A stretch of DNA of 64,000 bases from an uncultured virus (IMG/VR IMGVR_UViG_3300025789_000001) (lineage: Duplodnaviria > Heunggongvirae > Uroviricota > Caudoviricetes). Within the stretch, counting starts at the first letter, position 1, and each line of letters starts with the position of its first letter. Shown piece by piece: positions 3,510 through 43,298 of this stretch. A program made the translations under genes and the position numbers. Location of the stretch: the IMG/VR virus record IMGVR_UViG_3300025789_000001. The stretch is one strand, 5' to 3'. The notes beneath the pieces are model-generated. The model made no database searches. It was not told the origin of the DNA and worked only from the letters and a program-made list of their open reading frames with translations.

Positions 3510-3522
3510 AAAAGGAAAAAAA

Positions 3523-14144: not shown

Positions 14145-14174
14145 TAAAATAGCAGTACTCAAGGATAAAATTTG

Positions 14175-23100: not shown

Positions 23101-25439
23101 GCATCGTCCAAGAATACTTAGACCGTGAAGCAGAACTGGAGAACCTCAAAGCCGAGCAGTTGGATCCAAGCACTCCTCCTGATCGCCAGCTCAATCTATT
23201 GGCAGAAATTGAAGAAGCCCAGCAGGACTTTAAGAATATCTCTATTGCTCTGCAAAAAGTTAACATGACTGATGAGGCTATTGAAGACTTTATTAATTTA
23301 GATAAAGAGTATCCAGAGCTCAAAGAGATGATGAAAAACTGGTCTGCTGTCAATAAGAACATGATTGACATGATGGAGCACTCTAGAATCATCAGCAAGA
23401 AGCGGGCTGATACCCTTCGGGCTATCAAGGATTATGTTCCTTGGCAGCGTATTCAAGATGAGCAGACTGATCCCCATGCACCGATCTATGGCTCTAAAGG
23501 TGTTAGAAACGTAGCCAGAGAGCATCGTTTCAAAGAAGGAAAGGTAACGGCTGATATTGATGACATCGTAGACAATATGTTGCATAACGTCATGGTTACT
23601 ACCCGTAATTCAATTAAGAACTACGCAGCCAACCGTATTGCTCAAGAGTATGGAACCCGTAATGAGAAGGGCAAGCTCAAAGTATTTCCTAAGGAAGACT
23701 TCTCTAAAGGGATTGTCCGCATCCTGGTCAACGGCAGAAAAATCCATATTCAGATTGCTGACCCATTAGTTGCTCGTTCTGTTATTGGTATTGAGAACAT
23801 TCAGATTCCAATGAATGAAGTCTTGGCTTTCTTTGCCAATGGCTTGCGTAGATCGATTACCTTCTCTGGCGTATTCCAAATCAAACAGCTATTTATGGAT
23901 GCTCCTACAGCTGCGCTGGTATCTGGCGTGAAGAACCCAGCTGCCTTGTTTGGCCGTGTGTTTACTTCGTTTGCTGCAGGCTTAACTCAAAATGATGACA
24001 TTGTAGAGTTGCTCAAGGCTCATGGTATCGGTGGATATCACTCAGCCGCTAGAACAGCTGAACACCAATACAAACAAGAGATTGGTTTGATTAACCAGTC
24101 TAAGATGGCAAAGATAGCCAACATCCTCGATAAGATCTCTGATGCCTCTGATATTGCTCAGCGTAGAGCAGTCTATATTCAAGTCATGAAAGAAACTGGC
24201 GGGGATCAGCGTAAAGCAATTTTGGCTGCAACCAACATTATTGACTTTGATAAACGGGGTCATGCTAGAACAGCCCAGTTCCTTAATCGTACTATTGCCT
24301 TCATGAATGCCTATGCCCAGCAGATTGATGTCTTAGCACAAGCTTTGGCCGAACCAGTGGCTGGCGGTATTGAAGCCCTAACAGGCGCTAAAGTAACTAG
24401 CGTTAGCGGTGGTCTTCGTGGTATTGACCGTCAACAAGCCATGACCCGTTTAGCTGTTTCAGCTGGCCTCTTAGCCTCTACTTGCCTGCTTTACTCTATG
24501 GCGGTAGGGGACGATGATGAATACAAGAAGATGGATGACCAGACCAAGATGCGCAACTTCGTCATTCCTAAGTCATTGATGCAAACTATTGGATATGAAC
24601 ATTCATTGTTAATTCCTATGCATACATCGGCTAGTTATTTCTTTAAAACGATTCCTGAATTGCTTTATAACAAGATCACTAAGGAGGGGACAAAAGATGC
24701 CATCGATAATGCAAGGTTACGGAAAGTACTCAAAGAAGGTGCAGTGGATGCGTTACTTGGCCCATTGGGGTCTGCCCCAGTCCCAACGGGTATCAAACCT
24801 TTCCTTGAGATAGCAATTAACCATGACTTCTATACAGGCGGCACAGTAACCCCAGAAGGTATGAAGAATCTGGCTGCCTTTAAACAGTTCCGTGGCAGCA
24901 CTTCAGAGCTCGGTAAGTGGATGAGTGCAGTAAGCGGTCTAGGAACAGATCACCGTCTTTTGAACCCTATGGAAGCTGACCATATTATGCGTGGTCTGGG
25001 TGGCTCTGTGGCTGCTATTGCAATGTGGGGATCTAACCTATTTAATGGTAACAAGGCAAGCCCTCAGGAAAGGGATAATATCCTCTATGGCTCGTTTGTA
25101 GCCCCTGAGGTGGGCAGAGGTAGGGAAGACCTATTCTATGACCTTAAACAACGTGCTGACGTGGCTATGGGGACTTATAAGAACCTGATGCAGCATGGCC
25201 ATAAAGAAGAAGGCAAGGAATGGTTTAATGACCATAAAGGCGAGATTACAGCCTATGGATTTACTGAGTCGGCTAACCAGAGCCTGGTCAACGTCAATGC
25301 CGAGATCCGTAGAATCGAAGACTTGCCAGCCTCTAAGATGACCCCAGAGTTAAAACGTCAAAAGATTGACGAATACAAGCGGATTAAAGAAAACATCCTA
25401 GAGCAAACTATTCAGTTCCGTCTAAAAGCTGGACTCTAA
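14175..25439 (+). CDS. Giant polyvalent virion protein (DarB-like): amino-methyltransferase + Strawberry-notch-type SF2 helicase + HExxH segment + LPD38-like C-terminus
   Basis: EPTAGNG (~17157), NPPF (~17331), GDQTGIGKGR (~18399), DESHN (~18846), QAGSTGLSLHAS and QMLGRVHRTGQ (~20043), HELMH (~22116). Confidence 0.85.
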   Translation: MDDLQKLASQYGGTVVPEQAPAEKTEDLSKLVEQFGGTVVPYTPVTALKDVGKEAAAGALPGIYGTPEALQTGLMQSQRSTFNLPTEALNVIANPEKLINAIPTSLGLPPIFAGKEAKTELIPTKPAELALDEVIARGKSKTLRELTEAGIKKASQIRSTESGEMQKALEDFQPTLDLAKVAKGDLSGISFGKNPTALGVAGQFAQVFGSSFPAMVATVATKNPIYMTSMGFGQGASEATGNAIQYIDGMNDQKLAENSPYFKDLLARGYEPKLARAMTKEKAVDLAGTFEGITDTLGGAFTGNLLAGRFDKALLSSAKNRAARIISQMGKGVLAESTEQGLNEVADGIASDLGIDKTVRKEIGTDAFANFVYGALGGAPGGAFSGARAKAEPIVAPQAPQAPQAPNAPQAAAPVASTAPVVPEAVQKGLVSPEDLEEPVAPKAPSVAPEATPQEIEPELHARASMKLEDLVNQADQTGNINVKELNKLARDLDIKPSKDVQETTMAIFEKLNPRPVEEEVAPYDPQELVQKAQQDFKGVVTTNNEQTAESIRRNIGEDAANIYLNELNRLSEQALEKKLEEKNKAQEEAPVPKAEEKAAEAAPEEVSEQAPEPAEEKTQAQINQERQEKQKAEAQLKAPEDPDAMIKRQEGYEEAKAKYADDIDPRLAFSALKSAGKDVEMNPEALPELKKLEEMGLIQLKTGKRKSFYRGKGADEAGLNSESTYQELVNYLRPKEKVELSAEAKAKQDLEDALADLAWLASKDTRMNMMPEDEQRLLPILTRLMDAAFRLGYHKFKAAAKFVRDTIREKFGKEAADKINLNHLQGAYIGMSGNYPDQATPIAEVAGVQKLEELEEEAPKAEVKVDLATPDGKFKIAEAISQHFLYGNSFGTIVEARKFISDMTGQKIEAGTQAAKQADEAVEVGVVLAAQKIAHKDRKPAEIYQGLVNLYNQQPNLAVRSSTSVREQAYSTPAPLAYIASQLAGITDKTTVYEPTAGNGMLLLAANPKNVIANELNSTRYEMLKKVLPGAKVSNENAVLKSINPVDVVIANPPFGSIGEEFHVYGKTTREIDHAISYKALNDMPANGRAVLILGGVRAEGEDARREGYRQKAKREFYYNLYKDYNVVDHFSVAGDMYSKQGASYPVDVIVIDGKGQSQRALPAAELPQQITTYEELKEKLNEPSVVSRENVVPTRADIGERPTGEPKPEAVGERTGRPSGEPSVQGAKPAEGGRRGVSENEPSKRGAPEPTGAGVSAGQPGFANEPERGSNRGPVPSEGGEKRPSGREGAARNEPSPVGGPSVVSGTRVESGLADRRGQETETGHQVGYEPHSQAASVGTLVPKAMAQSIDESISKVEDEVGNVDEYVAEALHMDPETLKEKFSAEQVDALTLAIRNAEAGKGFIIGDQTGIGKGRVVAAMIKYAIENDKVPIFVTEKPNLYSDMIRDMDDIGMTKELGLDTAKPRILITNSSEAIPYTLYRKVGNEVTENHLTLRAPKSGKALDDILKAMREKESLGDYKVIFTTYSQLQSVKGKETERQRFIKEFGLGNYMIFDESHNAGGAGETQARSKEQRANESEGKSLATGRAAFVRDLVDNAYGTFFSSATYAKRPDVMDLYSSTDMKLAVNNINELADAIKLGGIPMQQIVANMLTKVGQYIRRERTFAGVTYQTQETKVDKQTAENMATSMRDILAFSRAKEGAVKDLQKSLDQTGGRASMEGEKTQVQQANFGSVMHNLIDQMLLSLKAQDSVKHAIESLKNGEKVVLTVSNTMGSFLQSYADEMGINVGDPVNLSFKDLYLKYLEKQRMLTIKTPQGKQQYRLTDEDLGPVMVAQYKKIQEFIENAGFGSAPISPIDYMHNELRKAGYKTEEITGRTSTLNYESGIPILTSRSANIKQRVNAVDAFNTGKADVIILNQAGSTGLSLHASSKFKDQRKRHMIIVQPEKNIDTHMQMLGRVHRTGQVVAPAYSQMMADIPAEMRPAAVLLKKMASLNANTTASRKSAVTAEGAVDFMNDYGGQIAQEYLRDNPEVHEALGGKRVVDLIEDPTDAKEDDIRRLTGYIPMLPIKEQEEIYKDLIDRYNDLVDRENSMGTNKLEAKAADLDAETLSSQPITEDKGEQSLFAQPAYMEKVDVKRTVKPYSSQEVNEKIAERVGSNMSEDRYRITNELLNGVKERAAEYGQAQLAALQEKGADQVKIDTYKGQLNLQYQHIKSILGNYPIGTPISIKNNQGIFVYGVVTDLENKKKTANPVAGSDWKMHIALANGDAKAITINFSQIGSTYQLNKEDYINWYNPETQKAEMIRLIDLFDKGSNVRREKRWMVTGNILAGFASDAVKNQGQIMSYTKSDGTTGQGILMPRTYDFEKAQREAPIRITNADNAMRFMNEVNGVVTSGDNVLRISKHGNQYQFNVPSSKKEGGTFFLDPGLLKFTGDFYKSGNTMYTRVYDESKAKAAIDYILNDRGDTLIASSPKDKAREMFAPPKATVTPSVIIPKEMKERIARIHENKVKEHAEARRGITAEKRKIIKGEIGIDVQRRLTELEQLAKELSEDKKLTAERKDSPERFMAKALDEYDKGNISKDVLDVIKYIYNNTPALLSGLKMSVKSFKDKQGFTAAGLFDAADRLITLYKTTGAVNAGTIRHELMHTLEQMMDPQTQQNLIEAWRASLEKAIKKNTDTKSQDYFKAILDYVDRPSEENFAHAMRILPSQDMYQYINPSEFWAVNAEKLMAAKLGTPWHRFTMAIKQVMEALKKLFGFDNTYTIYKTFNDLIKGETPRDHKKMLVDFIGSGKYKTEFLFSVEKTDELLAKHERNDAPIHLSNTVVDRLLGGYQDAKNTVAKMKESPRMAVNNMVGNVDRALLTTRVNMTDFTAGLTAADADRYGRMLEDGEGRAIASVAMNQALKAARIGTQVIMLGKLYFDPNLQMYRAVKDKFSMANILTIKHQLEKQIGVQRAANVIQAYFEAKRSKSIVQEYLDREAELENLKAEQLDPSTPPDRQLNLLAEIEEAQQDFKNISIALQKVNMTDEAIEDFINLDKEYPELKEMMKNWSAVNKNMIDMMEHSRIISKKRADTLRAIKDYVPWQRIQDEQTDPHAPIYGSKGVRNVAREHRFKEGKVTADIDDIVDNMLHNVMVTTRNSIKNYAANRIAQEYGTRNEKGKLKVFPKEDFSKGIVRILVNGRKIHIQIADPLVARSVIGIENIQIPMNEVLAFFANGLRRSITFSGVFQIKQLFMDAPTAALVSGVKNPAALFGRVFTSFAAGLTQNDDIVELLKAHGIGGYHSAARTAEHQYKQEIGLINQSKMAKIANILDKISDASDIAQRRAVYIQVMKETGGDQRKAILAATNIIDFDKRGHARTAQFLNRTIAFMNAYAQQIDVLAQALAEPVAGGIEALTGAKVTSVSGGLRGIDRQQAMTRLAVSAGLLASTCLLYSMAVGDDDEYKKMDDQTKMRNFVIPKSLMQTIGYEHSLLIPMHTSASYFFKTIPELLYNKITKEGTKDAIDNARLRKVLKEGAVDALLGPLGSAPVPTGIKPFLEIAINHDFYTGGTVTPEGMKNLAAFKQFRGSTSELGKWMSAVSGLGTDHRLLNPMEADHIMRGLGGSVAAIAMWGSNLFNGNKASPQERDNILYGSFVAPEVGRGREDLFYDLKQRADVAMGTYKNLMQHGHKEEGKEWFNDHKGEITAYGFTESANQSLVNVNAEIRRIEDLPASKMTPELKRQKIDEYKRIKENILEQTIQFRLKAGL

Positions 25440-25829: not shown

Positions 25830-25838
25830 CTGCTAGGA
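25830..25838 (+). promoter_or_regulatory. CTGCTAGGA box overlapping SD
   Basis: Exact motif 7 nt before ATG 25846. Confidence 0.7.
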
Positions 25839-25845
25839 AAACAAA

Positions 25846-26067
25846 ATGCACATACCTTATACAACCATTTCGGGTTTGAAGATTGGTTCTCGTTACCAGG
25901 AGAATGGTATCACATCCCCAATCACAGACCCCGATATGTTATTGATTCAAGAGGCTTTACTGGCCACACCAGACTACATTCGTAGCAAGAAGATGTACGA
26001 TAGAAGTATTGTAGTAAGCATGGCTACAGGCATATTTGTAGCCTTTTATTTTTTATTATTCCGATAG
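25846..26067 (+). CDS. Hypothetical protein with C-terminal TM helix
   Basis: PYTT.SGLKIGSRY motif; hydrophobic C-terminus. Confidence 0.65.
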   Translation: MHIPYTTISGLKIGSRYQENGITSPITDPDMLLIQEALLATPDYIRSKKMYDRSIVVSMATGIFVAFYFLLFR

Positions 26068-30910: not shown

Positions 30911-31398
30911 TGAACGCAAATGAACTAGCTGATGACATGGAAAACAGTAGATTCAATGACATCAATTACAACAAAAAGAAAGCTGCAGACTTTGTACGCC
31001 AGCAACAAGAAAAGCTGACCAAGTACGAACTGCGCCATGTTGCACAGCGTGACAGAATTGCAATACTAGAAATGCAACATAAACAGCAACAAGCTGAAAT
31101 AGAGGCGTTGAAACTGCAATTACATACCACTTTAACTAATCGTGACTTACGAACCTATGACGGCAAACTAAATATGAACAATGAACCAGTAGCGTGGTTT
31201 GAGCAAGACCCTGATATGAAGTCAGTTTGGTATCAGGCTGACCAAGACAGCCCTAATGCTATTCCACTCTACACCCATCCAGCAAAGACACTAACAGATG
31301 AGGAAATAATTGAAATTTGGAGTGGCATGGAAACTGACACAGGCGAACAAAACATTATTTTTGCTAGAGCAATACTAAGAAAGGCACAAGAGAAATGA
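30910..31398 (+). CDS. Modular hypothetical protein (internal MNNEPVAW, LTDEEI, FARAILRKAQEK blocks)
   Basis: TAATG coupling; shares DNA blocks with 31607..31924. Confidence 0.65.
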   Translation: MNANELADDMENSRFNDINYNKKKAADFVRQQQEKLTKYELRHVAQRDRIAILEMQHKQQQAEIEALKLQLHTTLTNRDLRTYDGKLNMNNEPVAWFEQDPDMKSVWYQADQDSPNAIPLYTHPAKTLTDEEIIEIWSGMETDTGEQNIIFARAILRKAQEK

Positions 31399-31610
31399 AT
31401 GGTAACGATTTAACAATCAACCGAGATATGAGCCAATACACAATTTTGGCATCTCCTGAACCGATTGGATATTGGCAGATTACACCTGAGGTAAAAGGTG
31501 GTTGGTCTACAAGGTTTGCTGTGTATGCGCCACTAAATCCAACGCATATTAAAAACACAGAAGAATTGCTTGGTTGGAAATGGATTGATGGAAAGGCACA
31601 AGAGAGATGA
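31395..31610 (+). CDS. Hypothetical protein
   Basis: ATGA-coupled at both ends; ends GKAQER. Confidence 0.6.
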   Translation: MNGNDLTINRDMSQYTILASPEPIGYWQITPEVKGGWSTRFAVYAPLNPTHIKNTEELLGWKWIDGKAQER

Positions 31611-31924
31611 ACAATGAACCAGTAGCGTGGATGGATAAAGAAAGCAATATCACCATGATTGGTGGTATTTACCCAAAAAAGCTAGAGCAATATTTAAGCG
31701 TATTAGAATCTAGGATTATTGCTTTGGAATCCCATCCAGCAAAGACACTAACAGATGACCCATTGGTTAATTTCAAACCTGTATGGCAAGAAAAGTCTGA
31801 ACTGACACTAACAGATGAGGAAATACGGAAGGTAGCAGATGAAGTGTTTAAAGACTACAAGAATTGGCATCACTACCAAATAGATTTTGCTAGAGCAATA
31901 CTAAGAAAGGCACAAGAGAAATGA
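31607..31924 (+). CDS. Modular hypothetical protein (MNNEPVAW...LTDEEI...FARAILRKAQEK)
   Basis: Shares identical DNA blocks with 30910..31398. Confidence 0.65.
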   Translation: MNNEPVAWMDKESNITMIGGIYPKKLEQYLSVLESRIIALESHPAKTLTDDPLVNFKPVWQEKSELTLTDEEIRKVADEVFKDYKNWHHYQIDFARAILRKAQEK

Positions 31925-32064
31925 GCTCTTGGCTAATTATCGTTACAGGTCTTATTTATCTTTATATTGGCTGTGAACAAGGGTTTAAAGGCAATATTGC
32001 TTTGTGTATTACTTATGTTAGTTATGCTGCTGCTAACGTAGGTCTTTACTTAATGGCCAAATGA
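31921..32064 (+). CDS. Small membrane protein, 47 aa (not in ORF track)
   Basis: MSSWLIIVTGLIYLYIG...YAAANVGLYLMAK; ATGA-coupled. Confidence 0.6.
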   Translation: MSSWLIIVTGLIYLYIGCEQGFKGNIALCITYVSYAAANVGLYLMAK

Positions 32065-32648: not shown

Positions 32649-33245
32649 CTTTACTATCCCCATTCTTTTTATGTCTTCGTCAGATAGATCGGGGACAAAT
32701 CTAAATCCACAGATGATTCTATTTGGCTGTTGGGCGTTGCCCTTGTGCAAGATGGTGGTATTGACCAGCGCAGCCCGTTTATCGTAATAAAGACGGCATA
32801 TTTCTTTTGTCTTTTCTACTTCAATAAAAGCAAAGTTGCGGTCTGGAACCATCCCGAACTGGGCTGTGTCATGTAACACTTTGATATCGGTGCTATGCCA
32901 TGAAGTGTAAGAACCCTCATAATCAATCAGGCCAATATTCAAGGACTGGGTTAGGTATTTAGGATCATAAGTATCAACATGAACCATGCCATCAGCTTCT
33001 GCCGTAGTTTTCTTGGTTATTAACAATCTATCGAACTTGTCTAATAACTGCATTTTTTTGAGATATTTCACAACTTCTTGGCAGTTTTCTATGACATCTT
33101 CTTTTGAAATGTTATAGGCCGTAGGATTTGTCCTGACTCCTGATTCGCCAGCATTAACCAAATCAATCAGCTCTTGCCTAATCACTTCTAAATTAGGAAT
33201 ATCAACGTAGCTGTAGAACCAGTTGGGATGAACGGGTTTATACAA
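32640..33245 (-). CDS. Putative 2OG-Fe(II) oxygenase-like protein
   Basis: HVD...SLNI...LVNTTILH......R..CGFRF jelly-roll pattern. Confidence 0.55.
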   Translation of the reverse strand: MYKPVHPNWFYSYVDIPNLEVIRQELIDLVNAGESGVRTNPTAYNISKEDVIENCQEVVKYLKKMQLLDKFDRLLITKKTTAEADGMVHVDTYDPKYLTQSLNIGLIDYEGSYTSWHSTDIKVLHDTAQFGMVPDRNFAFIEVEKTKEICRLYYDKRAALVNTTILHKGNAQQPNRIICGFRFVPDLSDEDIKRMGIVKLV

Positions 33246-33708
33246 CAGGCTTTTTCCAAATGATGGGTTGATCTGATCCTGCCGTATAAACCTTAACGGG
33301 CTCTCCTGAATACAGATCGCTTTGACACGCTGCCCAGCAAGCTTCTTCTGCTTTATGACCTAATGCCATGACTGCTAGGGCTGCTGCCGTGCCACTGCCG
33401 ATAGCATCGACATCCGTATGCTCCCAAAACTCTAGGTCTTTTCCAGCCACAAACAGCCCATCGTTGGATAACAGCATAAAGTCGGCATCGTTTTCAATCT
33501 TAATGACGGGTGGTTTACCCTTTTTGCCGTCTCTAAACCACTCTACGACCTTCTGAACACTCATGAGATCACCAGCTCCTGCCAGCCAGCCCTGAGGAAC
33601 TTTAAATACCTTAGGCAGGTTAAAGGCTTTGGTATCGGAATCATCATCCGAAGTCTGGCTATCTGAGACAAGGATCTTGCGTTTAGCATCACCGATAATG
33701 GTTGTCAT
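33238..33708 (-). CDS. Ntn-hydrolase (HslV/proteasome beta-like) protein
   Basis: Starts MTTII (N-terminal Thr nucleophile), SDSQ, AGAG, AIGSG, D.YSG. Confidence 0.75.
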   Translation of the reverse strand: MTTIIGDAKRKILVSDSQTSDDDSDTKAFNLPKVFKVPQGWLAGAGDLMSVQKVVEWFRDGKKGKPPVIKIENDADFMLLSNDGLFVAGKDLEFWEHTDVDAIGSGTAAALAVMALGHKAEEACWAACQSDLYSGEPVKVYTAGSDQPIIWKKPVV

Positions 33709-34673
33709 ATTTCTAAAATCTCCCCACGAAACTCTACTTTATCTTCGCCACAGACCATAATTAGCTCGGGTTGTAGCATTCGGCCTTCATCAAAGGATAG
33801 CATGACAAACCCAGACCGCCAGTCTTTGGGGCCATCTTCACAGTATTCAAAGGTAGGGCTCATAGGATCGGCTAAACAGCCCGTTTGAACGCCCCAAAAG
33901 GTATTCTGTTGATAGCCGTTTATAGGGCTTGCACAGAGCACATGGGTGTGTCCTGTGACGATGTTACAAAAAGCCGCCTGGACGTTGCCATAGCCCGCTG
34001 TACGGCCTCCTTTGAGGCGATGCTTGATAACGGTATCCTCGCCCACCCAAAAGCTCCAACAAGTCTCCCAATTCGGGAAATGGTATTTCAGGCTGAACCC
34101 GTCAACACCGCTATATTCAGGAACTTTGTTGACCAGCCAAGATTCATACCGCATATCGTGGTTACCCAGTGTCCATATGAGTCGGCAACCAGCTGGCCTG
34201 ACCTTTTCAATTTCGTTTAAATGCCAACGACAGGCTTCTAATTCTTCTAAAACTGTGGGTTTGGCATCGTAATTGATGGAAGGAAAGCGAGAGAGAACTT
34301 GTCCGTCAAACGCATCACCGTTACAAACGATGACTTGGGGCTTAAAATGTTTGATAAATTTGATTAGGGCTTTGAAGGCGGTGGTGGTTTCATCTGTGAA
34401 ATGGGCATCAGAAAAGACAATTACCCGTTTGCATTTGTCAATTTCTATGCCCCGTCTAACATTATGGGCAGCCAATTCAACTTTGGTGGGCTTCTTTTGA
34501 TCCCGCTGGGAATTATGGGTAGGAAGCTCAATTCCATAGCGTATTTCTAAGTTTCTTCGCCTAGCTAAAGTGCTTCTAGGGTTTATACCTAGTTTTTTAC
34601 CTACTAATGTGGGGCTTCCCAATTCTTTCCAGACCTTGATAAACTCTTTATCCGACTCTGTTATTATCTTCAT
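33705..34673 (-). CDS. Calcineurin-like metallophosphoesterase with N-terminal HTH-like region
   Basis: SDAH, NGDAFD, GNHD, GHTH motifs. Confidence 0.85.
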   Translation of the reverse strand: MKIITESDKEFIKVWKELGSPTLVGKKLGINPRSTLARRRNLEIRYGIELPTHNSQRDQKKPTKVELAAHNVRRGIEIDKCKRVIVFSDAHFTDETTTAFKALIKFIKHFKPQVIVCNGDAFDGQVLSRFPSINYDAKPTVLEELEACRWHLNEIEKVRPAGCRLIWTLGNHDMRYESWLVNKVPEYSGVDGFSLKYHFPNWETCWSFWVGEDTVIKHRLKGGRTAGYGNVQAAFCNIVTGHTHVLCASPINGYQQNTFWGVQTGCLADPMSPTFEYCEDGPKDWRSGFVMLSFDEGRMLQPELIMVCGEDKVEFRGEILEI

Positions 34674-34678
34674 ATGCT

Positions 34679-34687
34679 CCCTAGCAA
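34679..34687 (-). promoter_or_regulatory. Variant box (TTGCTAGGG) overlapping SD of the phosphoesterase gene
   Basis: 5 nt before ATG 34673; both changes remain G-U-compatible with the sRNA seed. Confidence 0.5.
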
Positions 34688-34759
34688 GATGTTGATGGGT
34701 ACGGCAATAGTAGGTTAGTAGTATTTCACTTTTGTTAAACCCATGAATAATAACAGATT

Positions 34760-35050
34760 ATGTATAGAAACAGGAAGCTTTTAGATGTCTTACGAAAATC
34801 CCCATGCCAACACTGTGGTAGCTCTGACGGCACAGTCGTGGCTGCCCACGCCAACTTGCTCAGACTTGGAAAAGGAAAAGGAATTAAATGTCCCGACTTT
34901 TACACAGCTGCCCTATGCTTTCGCTGTCACACAGAGCTGGATCAAGGCAAGAACCTATCCAAGATACAGCGGGAAGAAATGTGGATAGAAGCCTATCTCA
35001 AGACCCAAGCATGGCTGTGGGAAAATGGCCACATAAATACTAGCAGTTGA
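34760..35050 (+). CDS. HNH/Zn-finger nuclease-like protein (DUF1364/Ref-like)
   Basis: PCQHCG...VAAHAN...GKG.GIK...LCFRCH. Confidence 0.7.
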   Translation: MYRNRKLLDVLRKSPCQHCGSSDGTVVAAHANLLRLGKGKGIKCPDFYTAALCFRCHTELDQGKNLSKIQREEMWIEAYLKTQAWLWENGHINTSS

Positions 35051-35076
35051 CACATTTTCCATATATGTGCTATATT
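35047..35076 (+). promoter_or_regulatory. Sigma70-like promoter of the sRNA
   Basis: TTGACA-18 nt-TATATT with extended -10 TGn. Confidence 0.7.
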
Positions 35077-35082
35077 TAGTAT

Positions 35083-35212
35083 TGTCTACCCTGTAGACCG
35101 CACCCGTCACTCATATCCTAGCAGAATGATACTTGTGCAACGCAAGCCCCAGCGGATCCACGATCCCCTTAGAGCCCTTAGATTTCCCCTGATCTAAGGG
35201 CTCTTCCTTTTG
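35083..35212 (+). ncRNA. Putative trans-acting sRNA (~125-130 nt) carrying the anti-CTGCTAGGA seed
   Basis: Lies between a promoter and a terminator; no convincing ORF; hairpins GTCTAC/GTAGAC, GCAC/GTGC, GGATC/GATCC; TCCTAGCAG at 35116-35124. Confidence 0.65.
35171..35212 (+). terminator. Intrinsic terminator
   Basis: 13-bp perfect stem AGAGCCCTTAGAT/ATCTAAGGGCTCT followed by TCCTTTTG. Confidence 0.7.
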
Positions 35213-35214
35213 TA

Positions 35215-35243
35215 CTTGCAGAAAATATTTTTTACGCTATACT
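35215..35243 (+). promoter_or_regulatory. Sigma70-like promoter of the long structured RNA
   Basis: (C)TTGCA...TATACT at 35238-35243; spacer contains the palindrome AAAATATTTT. Confidence 0.6.
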
Positions 35244-35247
35244 AAAA

Positions 35248-35550
35248 GGGCTAGGATATAAGACGGGGACAAACGATTAAATTCGTCTGTCTGCCTCTTT
35301 ATATCTTTGCCTAGCCCGTACTCATTGGTGTTGCTACGGTAAAGGCTGTAAATACCCCTAGAAGAAACTATGGCAAAATGCCCCCAGCTTACCGTGATTG
35401 CTTGGTAAGATATGGGAACCGTCCTGTATATGGATAGACCGATGAGTGATAATGACAGACCTAGGCACGACAAAGACATCGAAGCAATTATGTAAGAAAG
35501 AACTCAGCAAGACTGAAAGCACCTATTCCTCATAGTAGGGATAGGTGTAT
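35248..35550 (+). ncRNA. Putative ~300-nt structured RNA / leader (or origin region)
   Basis: Helices 35248-55/35310-17, 35320-29/35438-47, 35336-48/35385-95, 35519-30/35537-48, several with G-U pairs. Confidence 0.5.
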
Positions 35551-35576
35551 CCTGAATCTAGCAATCCTGAACGAAT

Positions 35577-36005
35577 ATGAAGACAGCCAAATTTATACAA
35601 GAAATACATGATCTCTGTGATCCTCCAGCGAGAGAAGCAATCATTAAGTATGTTAAAGATGAATGGAATCTACTAGCAGAAGATTATGAGAAATACAAGG
35701 TAGATCTCTTAATTAAAAATCAATCAGGTAAATCAATTGGTTATGCTGAGTTGGAGCTGCGCAACTGGGAGTCGTGCCCGTATCCGACTATTCATATTCC
35801 ACAGCGTAAGAAAAAGTTATTTGATAACGATATGCCTACTGTCTACTTCGTAGTGAACCGCCCACTGACGATGGCATACTACATCAATACAAACAAGATC
35901 TTAGAACAACCGCTTAGAGAAATTGCCAATAAACGATTAACAGATGGTGAGTATTTTTACGATGTGCCAAAAGAAATGTTCAGCGTAATCCACTTGAAGT
36001 CTTAA
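35577..36005 (+). CDS. Putative PD-(D/E)XK-fold nuclease-like protein
   Basis: YKVDL...YAELELRNW...IHIPQRK. Confidence 0.55.
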   Translation: MKTAKFIQEIHDLCDPPAREAIIKYVKDEWNLLAEDYEKYKVDLLIKNQSGKSIGYAELELRNWESCPYPTIHIPQRKKKLFDNDMPTVYFVVNRPLTMAYYINTNKILEQPLREIANKRLTDGEYFYDVPKEMFSVIHLKS

Positions 36006-36022
36006 TCTCTTTTTGATAAAAT
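35994..36022 (+). promoter_or_regulatory. Sigma70-like promoter of the replication genes
   Basis: TTGAAG-17 nt-TAAAAT with extended TGn. Confidence 0.6.
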
Positions 36023-36033
36023 AATAGCTCCAA

Positions 36034-36042
36034 CTGCTAGGA
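36034..36042 (+). promoter_or_regulatory. CTGCTAGGA box overlapping SD
   Basis: AACTGCTAGGAGA, 7 nt before ATG 36050. Confidence 0.75.
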
Positions 36043-36049
36043 GATTTAG

Positions 36050-36319
36050 ATGGACTTTTACAACGAACAGATCGTAGAACTCACTGACACTGTAGTATCC
36101 TTAGACCAAGAATTAACATTAGCAAAAGACATCATCGCAGCCCATAGATGGGATGCTACCGAGATTGAAGTAGATTGGATTCATGACCTTGTCACCGAGC
36201 TTCGGGAACAAGTTAGGATTCAAGAAATTGAAATTGAAGCTCTCAAAGATTCCCGCAATATGTTTCAAGAAAGAAACGCAGAACTAATCCGTCAAGTAAA
36301 AGCGCTCAAGAAAAAATAA
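36050..36319 (+). CDS. Hypothetical coiled-coil protein
   Basis: Strong SD; TAATG-coupled to the helicase gene. Confidence 0.65.
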   Translation: MDFYNEQIVELTDTVVSLDQELTLAKDIIAAHRWDATEIEVDWIHDLVTELREQVRIQEIEIEALKDSRNMFQERNAELIRQVKALKKK

Positions 36320-37818
36320 TGGAGCTCTTATTACGGGAACACCAAGAAGGTGTTGTGGAGAAACTTCGTCAAGGGTTTCGAGAAGGCCATCGTTGCCAGC
36401 TTTTGTATGCACCCACTGGCTTTGGCAAAACAGAAGTAGCAATCTATTTAATGAAGGCTACGGCTGATAATTATCATAAAGCAGCGATGATTCTTGATCG
36501 TATTGTATTGATTGATCAGACCTCTAAACGCTTAGATAAATACTCGATTGCTCATGGCGTATTACAGGCTCAACATAAACGCCAAGATAAGACCAGGCGC
36601 ATTCAAATATGTTCGTCACAAACTATCGAGAGAAGAAATAACTTCCCCGATATTGATCTATTGATCGTAGACGAATGCCATATCACTCGGTCAGAAATTA
36701 CCAAGATCATCAAGAACAATGACAAGATTAAAGTCATTGGCTTGACCGCCACCCCGTTTACTAAAGGGCTAGGTTCTATCTATTCCAATGTGGTCTGTGC
36801 TTCGACAACTGAATCTTTAGTCGATGGTGAATGGCTATGTCCTCTCAAAGTCTACATCTCCAAAGAGATTGACATGGCTGGGGTCAAAAAGATTGCTGGT
36901 GAATGGAGTCCTGATCAAGTCACTGAACGGGGGATGCAGATCACTGGTGATATTGTGGCTGAATGGGCAAAGAAGACTTATGAAGTCTTTGGCAAACCCA
37001 TGAAGACTATTGTATTTTGTGCTGGTGTAAAGCATGGAGAAGATTTAGTAGAACAATTTGCCCGCAAGGGTTTTAACTTTGTCAGCATATCCTACAAGGA
37101 TAGTGGTGAATACAAACAGGAGGTAATTGATGACTTCGCTAGACTCGATACAAACATTCATGGGCTTATTGCTACTGATATTCTTACTCGTGGCTTCGAT
37201 GTTCCTGATGTATGTATTGGTATATCAGCTCGTCCTTTTAGTAAATCACTTAGCTCCCATGTTCAGCAGATGGGTCGGGTTATGCGATCTCACCCTACTA
37301 AACAGTTTGGTTTGTGGTTAGACCATTCAGGAAATTACATTCGTTTTAGAGATGACTGGGAAAGAATTTATTCTGAAGGTGTCAAGAATTTGGATGACAC
37401 TGGCGAGAAGACCAAAAGAGAACCAACAGAAAAGGAAAAGAAAGAACAGAAATGCCCAGCGTGTTCGGCACTCTGGCCTAGATCGTCTTCGTCATGTGCT
37501 TCGTGTGGCTATGTTAGACCGAAAAAGCAGATTGAGACCGTGTCAGGTGAATTAGTCGAGCTTGGCTTTGACAAAAATGCCAAGAAAGACGATAAACAAA
37601 AGTTCTATTCAGAGCTGATATACATCGCCAATGAAAAGAATTACAACATTAACTGGGCATCGCATATCTATAAACAGAAATTCGGAGTCTGGCCTCGTGG
37701 TTTACAAGAGTATCCCCGCATAGCCAGCTTAGAAACACAGAAGTATGTCAAACACAGAACCATCGCTTTTAGTAAACGCTTAAAGAAAATGAAGGTAAAC
37801 AATGCAGGAGTTCGTTAA
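36319..37818 (+). CDS. Superfamily 2 DNA helicase (SSL2/RadD-like) with C-terminal Zn finger
   Basis: APTGFGKT, DECH, GLTATP, RGFDVPD, QQMGRVMR, CPAC...CASCG. Confidence 0.92.
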   Translation: MELLLREHQEGVVEKLRQGFREGHRCQLLYAPTGFGKTEVAIYLMKATADNYHKAAMILDRIVLIDQTSKRLDKYSIAHGVLQAQHKRQDKTRRIQICSSQTIERRNNFPDIDLLIVDECHITRSEITKIIKNNDKIKVIGLTATPFTKGLGSIYSNVVCASTTESLVDGEWLCPLKVYISKEIDMAGVKKIAGEWSPDQVTERGMQITGDIVAEWAKKTYEVFGKPMKTIVFCAGVKHGEDLVEQFARKGFNFVSISYKDSGEYKQEVIDDFARLDTNIHGLIATDILTRGFDVPDVCIGISARPFSKSLSSHVQQMGRVMRSHPTKQFGLWLDHSGNYIRFRDDWERIYSEGVKNLDDTGEKTKREPTEKEKKEQKCPACSALWPRSSSSCASCGYVRPKKQIETVSGELVELGFDKNAKKDDKQKFYSELIYIANEKNYNINWASHIYKQKFGVWPRGLQEYPRIASLETQKYVKHRTIAFSKRLKKMKVNNAGVR

Positions 37819-40287: not shown

Positions 40288-40734
40288 TTACCAGCTTGAC
40301 TGGTAGTAAAAGTCCCAGTTAACGGCAGACGGGTTTGTCAAAATCTCCGACAATCTGTCCCTAGTCTCAGTAATGCTCTGCCAGTAGTATTCATCCTTTT
40401 CAGTGCTGCCGAAAAAAAATCCCGATACTGGCTTAAGAATATCTTCATCACGATTTACCAATGCTTCGTTGCATAGTGCAACCAGCTCGTCCAACTGGGC
40501 AGAATCGACCCAGTATTCCCCGCAGTCATCAAGTCCCTCCTGAACATTATCGACAAACCAATTATGGATAGCGTTGCACTTTCTCCAATACATCACATCA
40601 AAGGATACCGACTTGGCATCGTAGGCCGTAACCCCCAACACCTTCGCCACATCCTTGCGTAAATGTTGCTCTTCTTCTTTGTGATTCCACAAATATTGCT
40701 TTGCGGTCAAATACATATCTAAACCCATGATCAC
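40288..40734 (-). CDS. Conserved phage early protein
   Basis: MGLDMYL...YWRKCNAIHNWFV...GFFFG...YYQSSW. Confidence 0.75.
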   Translation of the reverse strand: MIMGLDMYLTAKQYLWNHKEEEQHLRKDVAKVLGVTAYDAKSVSFDVMYWRKCNAIHNWFVDNVQEGLDDCGEYWVDSAQLDELVALCNEALVNRDEDILKPVSGFFFGSTEKDEYYWQSITETRDRLSEILTNPSAVNWDFYYQSSW

Positions 40735-40910
40735 TCCTCCTCAGTCATGTAAAACTGCCCAACACGATTACCATTGGTATCCCTGATAGTCCCCGATTTT
40801 TGCTGAGAATCAATCATATTTGAGACCAGCTCTAAATTGGCAACCAATTCGTCATACAGTGATTCTTCATACACTGCGTTATCAGTGCGTATTTCCAGTT
40901 TGAACATCAT
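40731..40910 (-). CDS. Hypothetical early protein, 59 aa, immediately downstream of hammerhead 1 (not in ORF track)
   Basis: MMFKLEIRTDNAVYEE...IRDTNGNRVG; SD AGGAG. Confidence 0.7.
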   Translation of the reverse strand: MMFKLEIRTDNAVYEESLYDELVANLELVSNMIDSQQKSGTIRDTNGNRVGQFYMTEEE

Positions 40911-40917: not shown

Positions 40918-40926
40918 TCCTAGCAG
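40918..40926 (-). promoter_or_regulatory. CTGCTAGGA box overlapping SD
   Basis: TTAACTGCTAGGAGA, 7 nt before ATG 40910. Confidence 0.75.
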
Positions 40927-40929: not shown

Positions 40930-40980
40930 ATCAAAGACTGGATCACTCCAGTTTCGTCCTTACAGACTCATCAGTTTGAT
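40930..40980 (-). ncRNA. Type I hammerhead ribozyme (HH1)
   Basis: AUCAAA CUGAUGA GUCU-GUAA-GGAC GAAA CUGGA-GUGA-UCCAG UC^UUUGAU; full core, three stems; cut between 40936 and 40935. Confidence 0.93.
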
Positions 40981-41333
40981 AGGCACTTCTCACGCCATTT
41001 ACGGGCATTGTCATTCAATGCTGGGTAAAGCTCATCCAGCTTATGTATCAGCTTCTTTGGTGCGTTGAAGTAGTAAGGCATCATATCTTCTGTCATTTCT
41101 TTCATGACCCATTCTTTTGCAGAACACTCAAGCAATATGACCATGCCAAACCCAGTCTTAGTGCCATCGGCTTTAACGACATTCAGAATGCCGTATGCTT
41201 CCCGTCCCTTGATGCTGATATCAGTCAACTCAAAAGACGGGTTAGTGCCAATTTCACCAACTTGTTTAAATTCGTCTGCCAACCAGCGTTTTTTATCGCC
41301 ATGATAAGGCGGAGTCATTCCAGTCCATCCCAT
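40971..41333 (-). CDS. Hypothetical early protein (DUF6927-like)
   Basis: MGWT...KEMTEDMMPYYFNAP...A.KWREKC; its stop codon lies in the hammerhead core. Confidence 0.65.
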   Translation of the reverse strand: MGWTGMTPPYHGDKKRWLADEFKQVGEIGTNPSFELTDISIKGREAYGILNVVKADGTKTGFGMVILLECSAKEWVMKEMTEDMMPYYFNAPKKLIHKLDELYPALNDNARKWREKCLSN

Positions 41334-41557
41334 GTTATTGCTCCTCAGTAATGTTAAACAATGCTCTCATATGATTCTCAAGGTAATGTAATTTACTTAT
41401 CTGTTCGTCAATAAAATCACGCATATTGTCAAACTCCTGAAAACCAGCTACTGGCATCCCTTTCAAATAATTGGTTTTCCCTAAGTCCATTAGATCAAAA
41501 TACATTTCTTGAACAGTCGTATATAGGTTTGATTCAACTCCCATGTTATTGCTCCTC
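41328..41557 (-). repeat. 19-nt direct repeat flanking one small gene
   Basis: TCCCATGTTATTGCTCCTC at 41328-41346 and 41539-41557. Confidence 0.85.
41335..41544 (-). CDS. Hypothetical early protein
   Basis: SD GAGGAG; MGVESNLYTT...EEQ. Confidence 0.6.
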   Translation of the reverse strand: MGVESNLYTTVQEMYFDLMDLGKTNYLKGMPVAGFQEFDNMRDFIDEQISKLHYLENHMRALFNITEEQ

Positions 41558-41713
41558 GATTGATTCATCTACATCAGATTGTGAATAGCCCGACAAAATC
41601 TCAGGCCGATATTTGCTCAAGACTGCATCCACGCATTTATCGCAGACCCTTGCCAACGGGATACCTTGAGCATCGTATTCCCACCAGCTATCACCACTAT
41701 GTTCACAGATCAT
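41546..41713 (-). CDS. Small Cys/His-containing early protein
   Basis: MICEH...WWEYDAQGIPLARVCDKC. Confidence 0.6.
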   Translation of the reverse strand: MICEHSGDSWWEYDAQGIPLARVCDKCVDAVLSKYRPEILSGYSQSDVDESIEEQ

Positions 41714-41847: not shown

Positions 41848-42221
41848 TATTCAAACTCCTCAGAATTAACATAAACCCCATTCTTACGAAGTAGGGCAAT
41901 CGCATGGTCATTCAATGACATGACCCCATCATATTCGACCAGACTCCGTTTGCCATCCCGATCAATGGAAAACCACAGACCAATATGCTCAAACAAGTCC
42001 AGCTCAGGAATATCCCATTCAATGAACCCAGTGCAGTCTTTGTGGTAGTAGAGCTCTAAGGTAGACTCATGAGTCCCCAAATCTCTCTGCCCCCAGCTCC
42101 CCTCCAGCATCAGAGGAGAGCTCACTGTCATGCTATCAATGAGCTCTGCCACGATCAATACTCCGAAGTCAACATAAAGACATTGTCGGCCAAGAAGAAG
42201 GTATAAATGCCCGAAGGGCAA
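41847..42221 (-). CDS. Hypothetical early protein (true start probably near 42152)
   Basis: IEWDIP...HIGLWF...L.EYDGVMSL. Confidence 0.6.
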   Translation of the reverse strand: MPFGHLYLLLGRQCLYVDFGVLIVAELIDSMTVSSPLMLEGSWGQRDLGTHESTLELYYHKDCTGFIEWDIPELDLFEHIGLWFSIDRDGKRSLVEYDGVMSLNDHAIALLRKNGVYVNSEEFE

Positions 42222-42514
42222 TCAGTCATAGCGATCTTCTTAATCTTCAAAGTATTCAAATCCCCATCATCAAAAGCAATAACGGCTTTACCATCAGCAA
42301 CTTCCATGTTGATAGACATAAAGGGATTCTTCTTATGGAGCTCATAGCCCTCAGTAGCCACGATATCCAAGAACCAGTAAGCCCCAGCAGTATCAGCAAA
42401 GTATTGAACCCCATCGGTATGAACCAGCTTCGGTGCAAACATAGGCTGAGTCCTCCAATACTGGGTAGTGCCAAAGAACTGGGTTAAATCGATTGTGTTG
42501 GTTTGTGTTTCCAA
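42155..42514 (-). CDS. DUF6876-like early protein
   Basis: LTQF.GT..YW...TDGVQYFA..AGAYWFLD...DDGD...TD.P...MLTSEY. Confidence 0.7.
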   Translation of the reverse strand: METQTNTIDLTQFFGTTQYWRTQPMFAPKLVHTDGVQYFADTAGAYWFLDIVATEGYELHKKNPFMSINMEVADGKAVIAFDDGDLNTLKIKKIAMTDCPSGIYTFFLADNVFMLTSEY

Positions 42515-42522: not shown

Positions 42523-42531
42523 TCCTAGCAG
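42523..42531 (-). promoter_or_regulatory. CTGCTAGGA box overlapping SD
   Basis: TTAACTGCTAGGAGA, 8 nt before TTG 42514. Confidence 0.75.
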
Positions 42532-42543
42532 TTAATGATTACC

Positions 42544-42589
42544 GAATGGCAATCCCGATACCCCGAAGGGCATCAGGATTACAGCACTC
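42544..42589 (-). other. Long intergenic RNA hairpin (possible processing site)
   Basis: GAGUG-CU-GUAAUCCUGAUGCCC-UUCG-GGGUAUCGGGAUUGC-CAUUC: 20 bp with G-U pairs and a C(UUCG)G loop. Confidence 0.7.
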
Positions 42590-42730: not shown

Positions 42731-42925
42731 TTAGAAAGTAAAACCAGTAAAAACAACACGATTACCCCTGATGAACTTCCCATGATTCATATCGTCAAAC
42801 TTATGAACCCAGTATTGACGGGAAGAACGGCAGTAGTAGTCGCAGACCCAAACAGGGGAAGTCTCAGTGCCTTTTAGCTTAAAGAACTCTCCCTTAGCTA
42901 TCTTCTTGAGTAGTGATGGTTGCAT
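42731..42925 (-). CDS. Hypothetical early protein, downstream of hammerhead 2
   Basis: LKK..KGEFFKL...VWV..YY.RS..Y...FDD.N...VFTGFTF. Confidence 0.7.
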   Translation of the reverse strand: MQPSLLKKIAKGEFFKLKGTETSPVWVCDYYCRSSRQYWVHKFDDMNHGKFIRGNRVVFTGFTF

Positions 42926-42932: not shown

Positions 42933-42941
42933 TCCTAGCAG
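42933..42941 (-). promoter_or_regulatory. CTGCTAGGA box overlapping SD
   Basis: CACTGCTAGGAGA, 7 nt before ATG 42925. Confidence 0.75.
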
Positions 42942-42945
42942 TGTT

Positions 42946-42993
42946 GTCAAAGACCCCGAAGGGTTTCGCCTATTGAAGGCTCATCAGTTTGAC
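42946..42993 (-). ncRNA. Type I hammerhead ribozyme (HH2)
   Basis: GUCAAA CUGAUGA GCCU-UCAAU-AGGC GAAA CCC-UUCG-GGG UC^UUUGAC; cut between 42952 and 42951. Confidence 0.93.
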
Positions 42994-42997: not shown

Positions 42998-43246
42998 TTA
43001 GAACTGGCAGTTATCAGACATCTCCTGACGAAGATCAATCCATTCCTGAATGGCTTTAAGCGTCTTAGCCATATCGAACTGGGATTCTGATAGATACTCA
43101 AGAATATCCCCATCCGACCATGCTTCTACTATCGCATCCCAACCTTCGTTGTATAAAGCTCCAGCGTATGCTCTTACAACTTGAATCATCTTCTCCTCAT
43201 CTATCTGCTTATCCCATATGGCGATTGTGTCTTGTAGTGTCTGCAT
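42998..43246 (-). CDS. First gene of the early operon, acidic hypothetical protein
   Basis: VRAYA...Y..GWD.IVEAWSD..I; SD AGGAG within the variant box CTACTAGGA. Confidence 0.65.
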   Translation of the reverse strand: MQTLQDTIAIWDKQIDEEKMIQVVRAYAGALYNEGWDAIVEAWSDGDILEYLSESQFDMAKTLKAIQEWIDLRQEMSDNCQF

Positions 43247-43298
43247 ATCTGCTCCTAGTAGGTGGTTTAAAAATCATTCATCTAGTGAATGAGATTAA

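Follow-up and report, generated by a model that had tools for sequence, protein, structure and literature searches.

The 64,000-nucleotide (nt) stretch of DNA analysed here, referred to as the window, comes from an uncultured virus of the Caudoviricetes (IMG/VR record IMGVR_UViG_3300025789_000001), and its positions 35084-35212 on the plus strand encode a predicted small RNA (sRNA) that is a member of a new sRNA family confined to uncultured phage contigs. With a probability that we put at roughly 0.6, this sRNA would base-pair in trans as an antisense repressor with two kinds of site, namely the CUGCUAGGAG box that stands ahead of the start codons of a set of phage genes and the 5′ end of a neighbouring structured transcript, here called RNA2. 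The element bears the sequence-level marks of a trans-acting base-pairing sRNA: a putative promoter and Rho-independent terminator of its own around a short non-coding transcript, a conserved seed in an accessible region (two of the seed bases being paired), and complementary sites at functional positions in numbers beyond chance (36 against 7.1). The original prediction, made from the sequence of the window alone, was of an sRNA that acts on a Shine-Dalgarno box by RNA-RNA recognition, a view that the comparative evidence supports.

The predicted gene consists of the following parts.
35047-35076, plus strand: sRNA promoter, with TTGACA (35047-35052), an 18-nt spacer and the extended -10 element TGcTATATT (35068-35076; TG 35068-35069, TATATT 35071-35076), 11 of 12 consensus matches
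35084-35212, plus strand: predicted sRNA transcript of about 129 nt, its start placed 7-8 nt past the -10 element; fold z = -6.45
35084-35098, plus strand: P1, the 5′ hairpin GUCUAC-CCU-GUAGAC of the minimum free energy (MFE) fold (helix 1), with compensatory changes in all five modelled pairs
35100-35138, plus strand: P2, a long irregular hairpin of the MFE fold (helices 2-4), closed by GCAC (35100-35103) and GUGC (35135-35138), with a variable 5′ arm and CUAGCA at its tip
35116-35124, plus strand: seed UCCUAGCAG, the exact reverse complement of the CUGCUAGGA box (CTGCTAGGA)
35139-35153, plus strand: linker AACGCAAGCCCC, made up of nearly invariant columns in alignments A1 and A2
35154-35166, plus strand: P3, hairpin GGAUC-CAC-GAUCC of the MFE fold (helix 5), which covaries to GGUGA/UCACC with double changes in four of five pairs
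35171-35212, plus strand: intrinsic terminator with a 14-base-pair (bp) stem (35171-35204) and a U-rich tail (TCCTTTTG; UCCUUUUG), compensatory changes in eight of nine modelled pairs (helix 6)

The promoter, which is sigma-70-type and near consensus, is the best of six promoter-like sites in 33500-37000 and has the TTGACA and TGnTATATT elements from which the original prediction had started. The 129-nt RNA reaches an MFE of -41.7 kcal/mol as compared with -22.5 +/- 3.0 kcal/mol for its shuffles, none of which (0 of 200) is equally stable. It is pictured as an independently transcribed RNA of about 129 nt in which P1, P2, the linker, P3 and the terminator follow one another, with C[CUAGCA]G at the tip of P2. 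A terminator stem of 13 bp after about 125 nt had been proposed; the terminator is present, but the sizes are now 14 bp and about 129 nt. That the gene stands alone agrees with its putative promoter and covarying terminator, both kept across the homologues, and the absence of a convincing open reading frame (ORF) was also confirmed: none is conserved in the sRNA, and the sole internal ORF, of 23 amino acids (aa; 35126-35197), has no Shine-Dalgarno sequence and an ATG that is missing from the relatives. Together with the CUUGUGC that precedes it, the linker can alternatively form a small local hairpin, which RNAalifold favours. A transcript from the minus strand was rejected, with no promoter or U-run on that strand and G-U pairs that fit the plus strand.

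Homologues were collected with the two flanking proteins as anchors, by which 11 and 80 related viral loci were fetched. An nhmmer search with the 166-nt region (promoter to terminator) matched 37 of 95 loci, always downstream of an HNH-like gene, and yielded 20 distinct sequences, to which a pattern built from two conserved motifs added a further 46 viral and 52 metagenome stretches. The family thereby counts 40 or more distinct members, every one of them from a contig of an uncultured phage or a metagenome, mostly of freshwater. In bacterial genomes the pattern matched only two stretches, and as both are without every other family feature they provide neither a prophage copy nor a clue to the host. 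Among GenBank phages (50,697 records), blastn with the window locus and two stretches of L036 found nothing similar beyond three chance-level short hits. The Rfam search that had been suggested as a check gave no match for the sRNA, in keeping with an undescribed family, and 0 hits at gathering scores in the whole window; cmscan of 34950-35650 at E <= 10 returned a chance EGFOA (RF02955) hit only (35378-35479, 16.8 bits with a cut-off of 37.7, E = 1.7). Identity with EGFOA RNA was rejected, the hit being below the cut-off and absent from the loci of eight relatives at E <= 1.

Examination of fold and covariation in relatives, likewise suggested beforehand, found the promoter, four helices and the terminator conserved, with strong covariation. 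The -10 element is kept in 40 of 40 homologues, the TGn extension in 35 of 40 and a -35 element with at least four of six matches in 38 of 40. A covariance model, R1, based on two members and a four-helix structure drawn by hand, gave 49 hits, a single one of them in the window (35081-35211, 39.7 bits, E = 1.1e-6). Alignment A5, obtained by fitting to the model, has 96.8% of its cells paired compared with 77.7% in shuffles, 0 of 500 of which reach that value, and with 31-46% in slid controls; compensatory changes occur in 25 of 27 pairs. The closing stem of P2 varies among relatives as CCGUCA/UGACGG (L024) and GCCAUCA/UGAUGGC (L010). Two unrelated viral contigs, L216 and L255, contain promoter-led short regions with the linker motif UUGUGCAAnGCAAGCCC and no CUAGCA loop, which may represent another sRNA using the same linker module.

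Within the seed, CCUAGCAG is invariant in every family member examined, and CCTAGCAG is invariant both in the 20 of 20 protein-anchored homologues and in 34 of 34 distinct members found by a loop-independent anchor, so that the conservation of the loop among relatives, on which the original prediction had staked itself, is borne out. The seed is retained even in the strongly reduced, divergent variants L034, L043/L044 and L010, from which other parts of the RNA are missing. The MFE fold of the window RNA presents CUAGCA (35118-35123) as a hexamer loop closed by C35117-G35124. The expectation that a hairpin loop exposes most of the seed holds in that the seed sits at the hairpin tip, but only CUAGCA, six of the nine bases, is unpaired, and the loop is not one of 11 nt. 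Across the family CUAGCA forms a C-G-closed hexaloop in 24 of 40 MFE folds and is fully unpaired in one more, with a mean unpaired probability of 0.64-0.89. A second seed was sought and discarded, the k-mer complement scan showing no other consistent peak, and so was a conserved small minus-strand ORF under the seed, whose start codons and lengths are not conserved.

The sequence complementary to the seed, CTGCTAGGA, occurs in the window in exactly six copies, of which five are in sense orientation 7-9 nt ahead of an ATG or TTG while the sixth is the antisense copy at 35116-35124 itself. The relation of seed and box at five start sites, as first proposed, is thus exact. The boxes and two variants are located as follows.
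25830-25838, plus strand: box CUGCUAGGA, 7 nt ahead of the ATG of gene 25846-26067 (73 aa)
36034-36042, plus strand: box CUGCUAGGA(G), ahead of the ATG of gene 36050-36319 (89 aa), about 5 nt past the start point predicted from promoter 35994-36022
40918-40926, minus strand: box ahead of the ATG of gene 40731-40910 (59 aa), 9 nt past a hammerhead cleavage site
42523-42531, minus strand: box ahead of the TTG of gene 42155-42514 (DUF6876), with a two-hairpin module upstream
42933-42941, minus strand: box ahead of the ATG of gene 42731-42925 (64 aa), 10 nt past a hammerhead cleavage site
34679-34687, minus strand: variant box TTGCTAGGG (UUGCUAGGG), ahead of the ATG of the metallophosphoesterase gene 33705-34673
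43253-43261, minus strand: variant box CUACUAGGA, ahead of the ATG of gene 42998-43246; free-energy change (ddG) on cofolding with the sRNA -7.7 kcal/mol, within the control range

Opposite the sRNA, both positions at which the variant at 34679-34687 departs from the box would form G-U pairs, as had been noted originally; its cofold ddG of -10.4 kcal/mol is weaker than that of the exact boxes. By chance, any particular 9-mer should turn up about 0.5 times in 128 kilobases (kb), both strands counted. The 8-mer core CTGCTAGG has 36 copies in the window and the whole contigs of five relatives (256.5 kb), compared with 7.1 +/- 2.8 and a maximum of 15 in 200 Markov-1 simulations, which makes chance an unlikely explanation of the copies. 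The script labelled the 36 copies as six sRNA loops, 28 starts of ORFs of at least 35 aa and two 'other'. Re-read by context, they include about 26 real gene starts, two RNA2 5′ ends (in G003 and G005) and two CTGCTAGGG copies that lie inside genes of the window; the script had counted one of these last two among the starts, on account of a spurious 55-aa ORF. In the gene-start boxes 7-11 nt separate AGG from the start codon, and boxes follow gene orientation on both DNA strands. Most phage genes have ordinary AGGA/GGAG sites, so the box appears as a special Shine-Dalgarno sequence with a 5-nt upstream extension that is reserved for a subset of three to six genes per phage, mainly small ones in the predicted early region, along with the gene that comes first after RNA2.

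The occurrence of boxes is tied to that of the sRNA. CUGCUAGG is about five-fold enriched in phages with the sRNA and in no others. A regular expression recognised the sRNA in 24 of 72 distinct HNH-anchored loci, and 20 of these 24 have one box or more (33 boxes in 118 kb). Three of the 48 remaining loci hold divergent sRNAs together with boxes, and the other 45 have only three intragenic CTGCTAGGG copies, none of them at a start site. Five related phages that are 98-100% complete and give no R1 hit at E <= 1 have four copies in 310 kb. This co-occurrence bears out the proposed match and is consistent with an sRNA that addresses the start-site boxes. Two neighbouring genes on the minus strand of the window, 40971-41333 and 41335-41568, share a second repeated start-site sequence, GAGGAGCAATAACATG, which does not have the CU insertion of the box and cofolds more weakly with the sRNA.

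The surroundings of the boxes are structured as well: of 28 boxes, 18 follow a stable hairpin, five a -10-like element and 22 either of the two. Two of the five boxes of the window lie 9-10 nt past the cuts of predicted hammerhead ribozymes, which the original prediction did not mention.
40930-40980, minus strand: type I hammerhead, AUCAAA-CUGAUGA-stem II-GAAA-stem III-GUC/UUUGAU (cut at the slash), matching RF00163 Hammerhead_1 over the full model length with 28.1 bits (cut-off 34), E = 3.5e-4
42943-42993, minus strand: second type I hammerhead, Rfam Hammerhead_HH9, 21.6 bits (cut-off 52), E = 0.032

The Rfam scores of both are under the cut-off, while a script found the core CUGAnGA...GAAA...UH and stems I, II and III intact. 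By the same search for core and three stems, nine hammerheads were found in six genomes (examples in the window and in G002, G004 and G006, loci L097, L102, L106 and L107), lying between small genes of the predicted early region, and nine of nine are followed by a CUGCUAGGAG box 8-10 nt past the predicted cut. From the positions of promoters and hammerheads, box mRNAs would begin a few nt ahead of the box, either just past a promoter start or at a 5′-OH end made by an intercistronic type I ribozyme. The idea that the box forms part of an extended hammerhead stem I was rejected, as the flanks are not complementary. Ahead of four boxes a conserved two-hairpin module ending in GGGAUUGCC-N4-GGUAAUC (GGUAAUCAU) stands in place of a hammerhead, for which no Rfam hit was obtained.
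42532-42585, minus strand: two-hairpin module in the window
G005, about 3470-3522; G002, about 34183-34235 (minus strand); G003, about 33055-33108: the same module in relatives

In the available text of PMC3088659, hammerheads are described that flank single prophage genes, one further example lies 13 nt ahead of the start of a halovirus early gene, and the prophage hammerheads are proposed to cut long transcripts into gene-length mRNAs. The hammerheads found here, two in the window and nine in six genomes, resemble them in being intergenic and should likewise cut transcripts into gene-length mRNAs. They differ in the sRNA-complementary box at a fixed distance of 8-10 nt, a link that was not found in the available text of that source.

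RNA2, whose 5′ end is a second and better-matching target absent from the original prediction, follows the sRNA on the same strand.
35216-35243, plus strand: RNA2 promoter as read from the sequence, TTGCAG, a 16-nt spacer and TATACT
35248-35317, plus strand: 5′ hairpin H1 of RNA2, obtained by folding, with the 5′ arm GGGCUAGGAUAUAAG and a 3′ arm ending in CCUAGCCC (35310-35317)
35318-35560, plus strand: structured core of RNA2, a long leader up to gene 35577-36005; fold z = -4.0, and 69 predicted pairs in a six-locus alignment, nine of them with compensatory changes

The arrangement TTGCAn, 16 or 17 nt, TAnnCT and then GCUAGG 5-12 nt further on recurs at the predicted 5′ end of RNA2 in 40 of 40 homologous loci, always in tandem with the sRNA on the same strand, and no conserved ORF begins there; a conserved small ORF at this end was rejected, its start codons and lengths not being conserved. 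In the window the 5′ arm of H1 holds GCUAGGAUAU (35250-35259), complementary to AUAUCCUAGC of the sRNA (35113-35122), and the 3′ arm ends in CCUAGC. Throughout the family the 5′ segment of RNA2 is complementary to the sRNA of its own locus over 9-21 nt (at least 12 nt in 30 of 40 loci), and, beginning in the loop, this complementarity continues along the variable 5′ arm of P2, with which it co-varies. If the invariant core is excluded, no other partner matches the variable arm as well as the downstream region of the same locus in 12 of 20 arm groups; a larger set gave 14 of 24, and chance alone would produce about one.

Beyond H1, RNA2 is a conserved structured RNA of about 300 nt that extends to the next gene, and its core comes in several types. 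That of the window (35318-35560, about 250 nt) has a predicted multi-helix fold with several CUAG motifs and is common to L007, L045, L037, L029 and L023, and in L025, L024, L010 and L034 that position is taken by a third, unrelated core (GUACUCCAAACGAUAUCAAGAACCUA...); neither type has an Rfam match. In 11 of 19 relatives scanned, the Betaproteobacteria-1 RNA (RF02932) is found about 100 nt past the sRNA terminator with 89-98 bits (L036 3593-3712, L031 1486-1605, L022 872-994 and eight more loci), and so within RNA2, the transcript with the sRNA-matching 5′ end. No RF02932 match of 49.4 bits or more was found in the window or in record G001, and in relatives it lies downstream of the sRNA rather than on it. 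The sRNA region itself does not match RF02932 and represents a different RNA. The main text of PMC5737381, as far as it was available, contains nothing on Betaproteobacteria-1. In relatives a hydrophobic ORF of 51 aa (L036 3829-3984), without a counterpart in the window, lies between RF02932 and a box-led gene of about 270 aa.

In the mechanism proposed for the sRNA, the CUAGCA loop and the 5′ arm of P2 would pair in trans with the box on the one hand and with the 5′ end of RNA2 on the other. The predicted duplex with a box always covers CUGCUAGG and with it the Shine-Dalgarno AGG; UCUCC, the arm sequence of most members, covers the whole AGGAG, and in others CAGUUGA on the 3′ side lengthens the duplex upstream. 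Since AGG(AG) is covered, exclusion of the 30S subunit is the most likely effect on boxes, and accumulation of the sRNA would shut off translation of the box genes and probably destabilise their mRNAs. A near-consensus promoter would fit an abundant sRNA. Cofolding with the sRNA gives a ddG of -12.6 to -19.5 kcal/mol for the five boxes, with 35100-35130 as the pairing region, and for RNA2 one of -26.0 kcal/mol with a free 5′ arm and -1.8 kcal/mol with H1 closed. Given the stability of closed H1, the sRNA would need to bind nascent RNA2 within a co-transcriptional window, catching the 5′ arm before H1 closes and thereby altering the fold or stability of the leader. The purpose may be a timed shut-off of early genes, the exclusion of superinfecting relatives, or both. 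Transcription, pairing in vivo, repression rather than activation, its timing and the early class of the targets are inferred from sequence. The co-variation of arm and RNA2 suggests a phage-specific function, by analogy comparable to c4 heteroimmunity or plasmid incompatibility; in the c4 RNA of P1 and P7, differences in sequence set the specificity between related phages, according to the available text of PMC12197685. A wider picture, tentative and somewhat doubtful, is that of a control layer made entirely of RNA, in which ribozymes and promoters would create 5′ ends with a standard box, one strongly expressed sRNA would act as master off-switch, also towards superinfecting relatives, and the hypervariable arm, by recognising only its own RNA2 leader, would confer private specificity.

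Several observations weigh against repression in trans at boxes and RNA2. On the side of the seed, U35116 and C35117 pair with A35125 and G35124 in the MFE fold, which leaves six of nine seed bases exposed, and at least one CUAGCA base is paired in 15 of 40 MFE folds. Most family members also contain CUCCU, the anti-Shine-Dalgarno pentamer, so that some affinity for any strong Shine-Dalgarno sequence is to be expected. The energies discriminate poorly: two of three control starts reach -12.6 and -12.7 kcal/mol and thus equal the weakest box, the non-box gene 53088 ranks second in the window, and with a 32-nt seed 28 start regions of the window are at or below -13 kcal/mol, compared with 26.7 for shuffled seeds. 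The corresponding counts for G003 (46 against 40.5, maximum 57) and G006 (22 against 15.7, maximum 30) are within the range of the shuffles as well, while G002, G004 and G005 exceed every shuffle; this ranking of all start regions was set aside as too noisy to discriminate. As regards RNA2, the match in the window is short (10 + 2 nt beyond the core) and its arm-only score of 6 does not make it the best partner, closed H1 comes close to the sRNA duplex in stability, and the divergent L034 has boxes without a recognisable RNA2 match, so that pairing with RNA2 is not universal. Alignment A5 is biased, being fitted to the model, containing one false row (L129, a minus-strand hit) and including pattern-derived sequences that carry the seed by construction. 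Finally, the searches found no cultured relatives carrying the sRNA gene.

Among the alternatives, the one that fares best, albeit unlikely, regards the sRNA as a dedicated regulator of RNA2, the leader of the replication-gene operon, in the manner of plasmid copy control or P1/P7 heteroimmunity, its variable arm setting specificity and its match to boxes being a secondary effect of the shared GCUAGG. Such a role would agree with a complementarity to RNA2 that is longer than that to boxes (9-21 compared with 8-12 nt) and co-varies with the variable arm, with the tandem arrangement in 40 of 40 loci, with the free 5′ arm of RNA2 as the partner of best ddG (-26.0 kcal/mol), and with a variable arm that has no counterpart in the invariant boxes. 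However, the invariant CCUAGCAG reaches 2 nt past the GCUAGG of RNA2 and matches the full box CUGCUAGG, boxes are enriched only where the sRNA is present, the minimal sRNAs of L034 and L043 keep both the loop and the boxes, in L034 without a match to RNA2, and in the window itself the match to RNA2 amounts to just 10 + 2 nt.

It is improbable that the sRNA acts positively or on processing, either protecting box mRNAs from 5′-end-dependent decay or modulating the folding or cleavage of the ribozymes, because the invariant duplex always covers the Shine-Dalgarno AGG and should block initiation, most family members do not extend into stem I, boxes are also found at ribozyme-free primary 5′ ends (five of 28 with a -10-like element upstream) and the ribozymes are complete in cis. 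Favourable to this idea are the box 8-10 nt past the cut in nine of nine hammerhead-like motifs from six genomes, the place of boxes at the extreme 5′ ends of mRNAs, and sRNAs of the CAGUUGA type that extend their pairing to UCAA and so overlap the last bases of stem I in G003-type leaders.

A third alternative would make the region part of longer transcripts, be it the 3′ untranslated region of the HNH-like mRNA or a read-through switch in cis formed by the P2 arm and the 5′ segment of RNA2. The overlap of the sRNA promoter with the stop codon of the HNH-like gene, the synteny of the two in 68 of 72 loci and the distance of about 130 nt between the sRNA arm and its complement, which share a strand, could be read in this way, yet it is quite improbable in view of the strong promoter of the sRNA (conserved in 40 of 40 loci), the conserved covarying terminator with its U-run and the separate promoter conserved between sRNA and RNA2 in 40 of 40 loci, and a purely cis role would leave three to six dispersed boxes on both strands unexplained. 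Very improbable is a C[CUAGCA]G hairpin that serves as protein-binding site, decoy or operator without any RNA-RNA function of the box complementarity: while the invariant loop and closing pair are as in protein-recognised hairpins and the loop holds the palindrome CUAG, the complementarity to boxes spans 8-12 nt, extends past the loop and keeps to the orientation of the genes, the co-variation of the variable arm with RNA2 would not be expected of a protein site, and no candidate RNA-binding protein was found nearby among the proteins scanned.

Antisense repression in trans by the sRNA has partial precedents. The c4 RNA of P1/P7 and the CI RNA of P4 are cut out of the operon transcript that they regulate and control antirepressor or immunity functions in temperate elements. 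Like them, the sRNA is a small phage RNA; it lies upstream of a same-strand candidate target, and its exposed sequences would pair with sites around a ribosome-binding site, although no conserved ORF starts at the tandem target. Unlike them, it has a predicted promoter and terminator of its own and additional dispersed targets at three to six start sites, and no lysogeny genes were found among the window proteins scanned. To the Rfam C4 antisense family the region 34950-35650 gave no match even at E <= 10. In plasmids ColE1 (RNA I/RNA II) and R1 (CopA/CopT), a stem-loop antisense RNA catches its nascent target within a kinetic window, and variation in arms and loops leads to specificity groups. 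Those RNAs are encoded in cis on the opposite strand and fully complementary, whereas the sRNA is encoded in tandem with a complementarity of 9-21 nt. RNAIII and RsaE of Staphylococcus pair a CUCC-like hairpin loop or arm with the Shine-Dalgarno regions of several mRNAs; in contrast to these host-encoded RNAs with degenerate targets, the sRNA matches a single invariant 8-mer to a box, just as invariant, in genes of the phage itself. T4 shuts off early mRNAs at their ribosome-binding sites with the translational repressor RegA and the GGAG-specific endoribonuclease RegB. Only the logic would be shared with T4, where the factors are proteins; here an RNA seed would do the recognising, at target sites with a dedicated 5-nt extension of the Shine-Dalgarno sequence. 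Three things seem to be new: an invariant seed combined with a standardised start-site box, the connection of this box with 5′ ends made by hammerheads, and a tandem target that co-varies with the sRNA. None of them was found in the open-access literature text searched.

With respect to its genomic setting, the window is a segment of a phage genome with 42% guanine plus cytosine, in which scans with protein libraries identified terminase, portal, capsid, a 3755-aa polyvalent protein and a recombination/replication block. Across the sRNA locus it does not differ from G001, the nearest record. The sRNA lies in a non-coding stretch of 526 nt (35051-35576) flanked by the HNH/YbcO-like gene and a gene of 142 aa (35577-36005), which stands ahead of helicase and primase genes.
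34760-35050, plus strand: HNH/YbcO-like gene (96 aa), phrog_131 HNH endonuclease with E = 4.3e-26, Pfam YbcO with 22.4 bits, under the cut-off

The stop codon of this gene overlaps the -35 element of the sRNA promoter, and of 72 distinct pattern-derived loci, 68 have an HNH-like homologue upstream in the same orientation, which makes it a conserved syntenic neighbour. The 3755-aa polyvalent protein (14172-25439, plus strand) combines DNA methyltransferase, Strawberry-notch-type helicase and LPD38 domains; a role as virion RNA polymerase was rejected, its domains resembling injected anti-restriction proteins instead. The closest cultured relatives of the large terminase (45092-46582, plus strand) are those of the Pelagibacter phages HTVC027P (59% identity) and HTVC023P (55%), whose replication modules differ from that of the window and which were not searched with the covariance model. 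At 31365-32064 (plus strand) three consecutive genes, 31395-31610, 31607-31924 and 31921-32064, have near-identical upstream and start regions (…aaaggcacaagaga[ag]ATG), which suggests a tandem duplication. A search of the window for tRNA and tmRNA genes found none.

To our knowledge, few phage sRNAs are understood, and those known belong mostly to temperate phages, with a single gene or the host as their target. If repression in trans is the true role of the sRNA, apparently lytic, uncultured phages would possess a conserved sRNA that addresses a set of their own genes via one box. The link between the box and hammerhead-made 5′ ends would provide phage ribozymes with a testable role, and the placement of the orphan Rfam family Betaproteobacteria-1 in a transcript matched by the sRNA would be the first functional lead for that family. 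As the parts are small and defined, with a seed of 8 nt and a box of 10 nt, the hypothesis is testable without the host, in E. coli reporters or in vitro.

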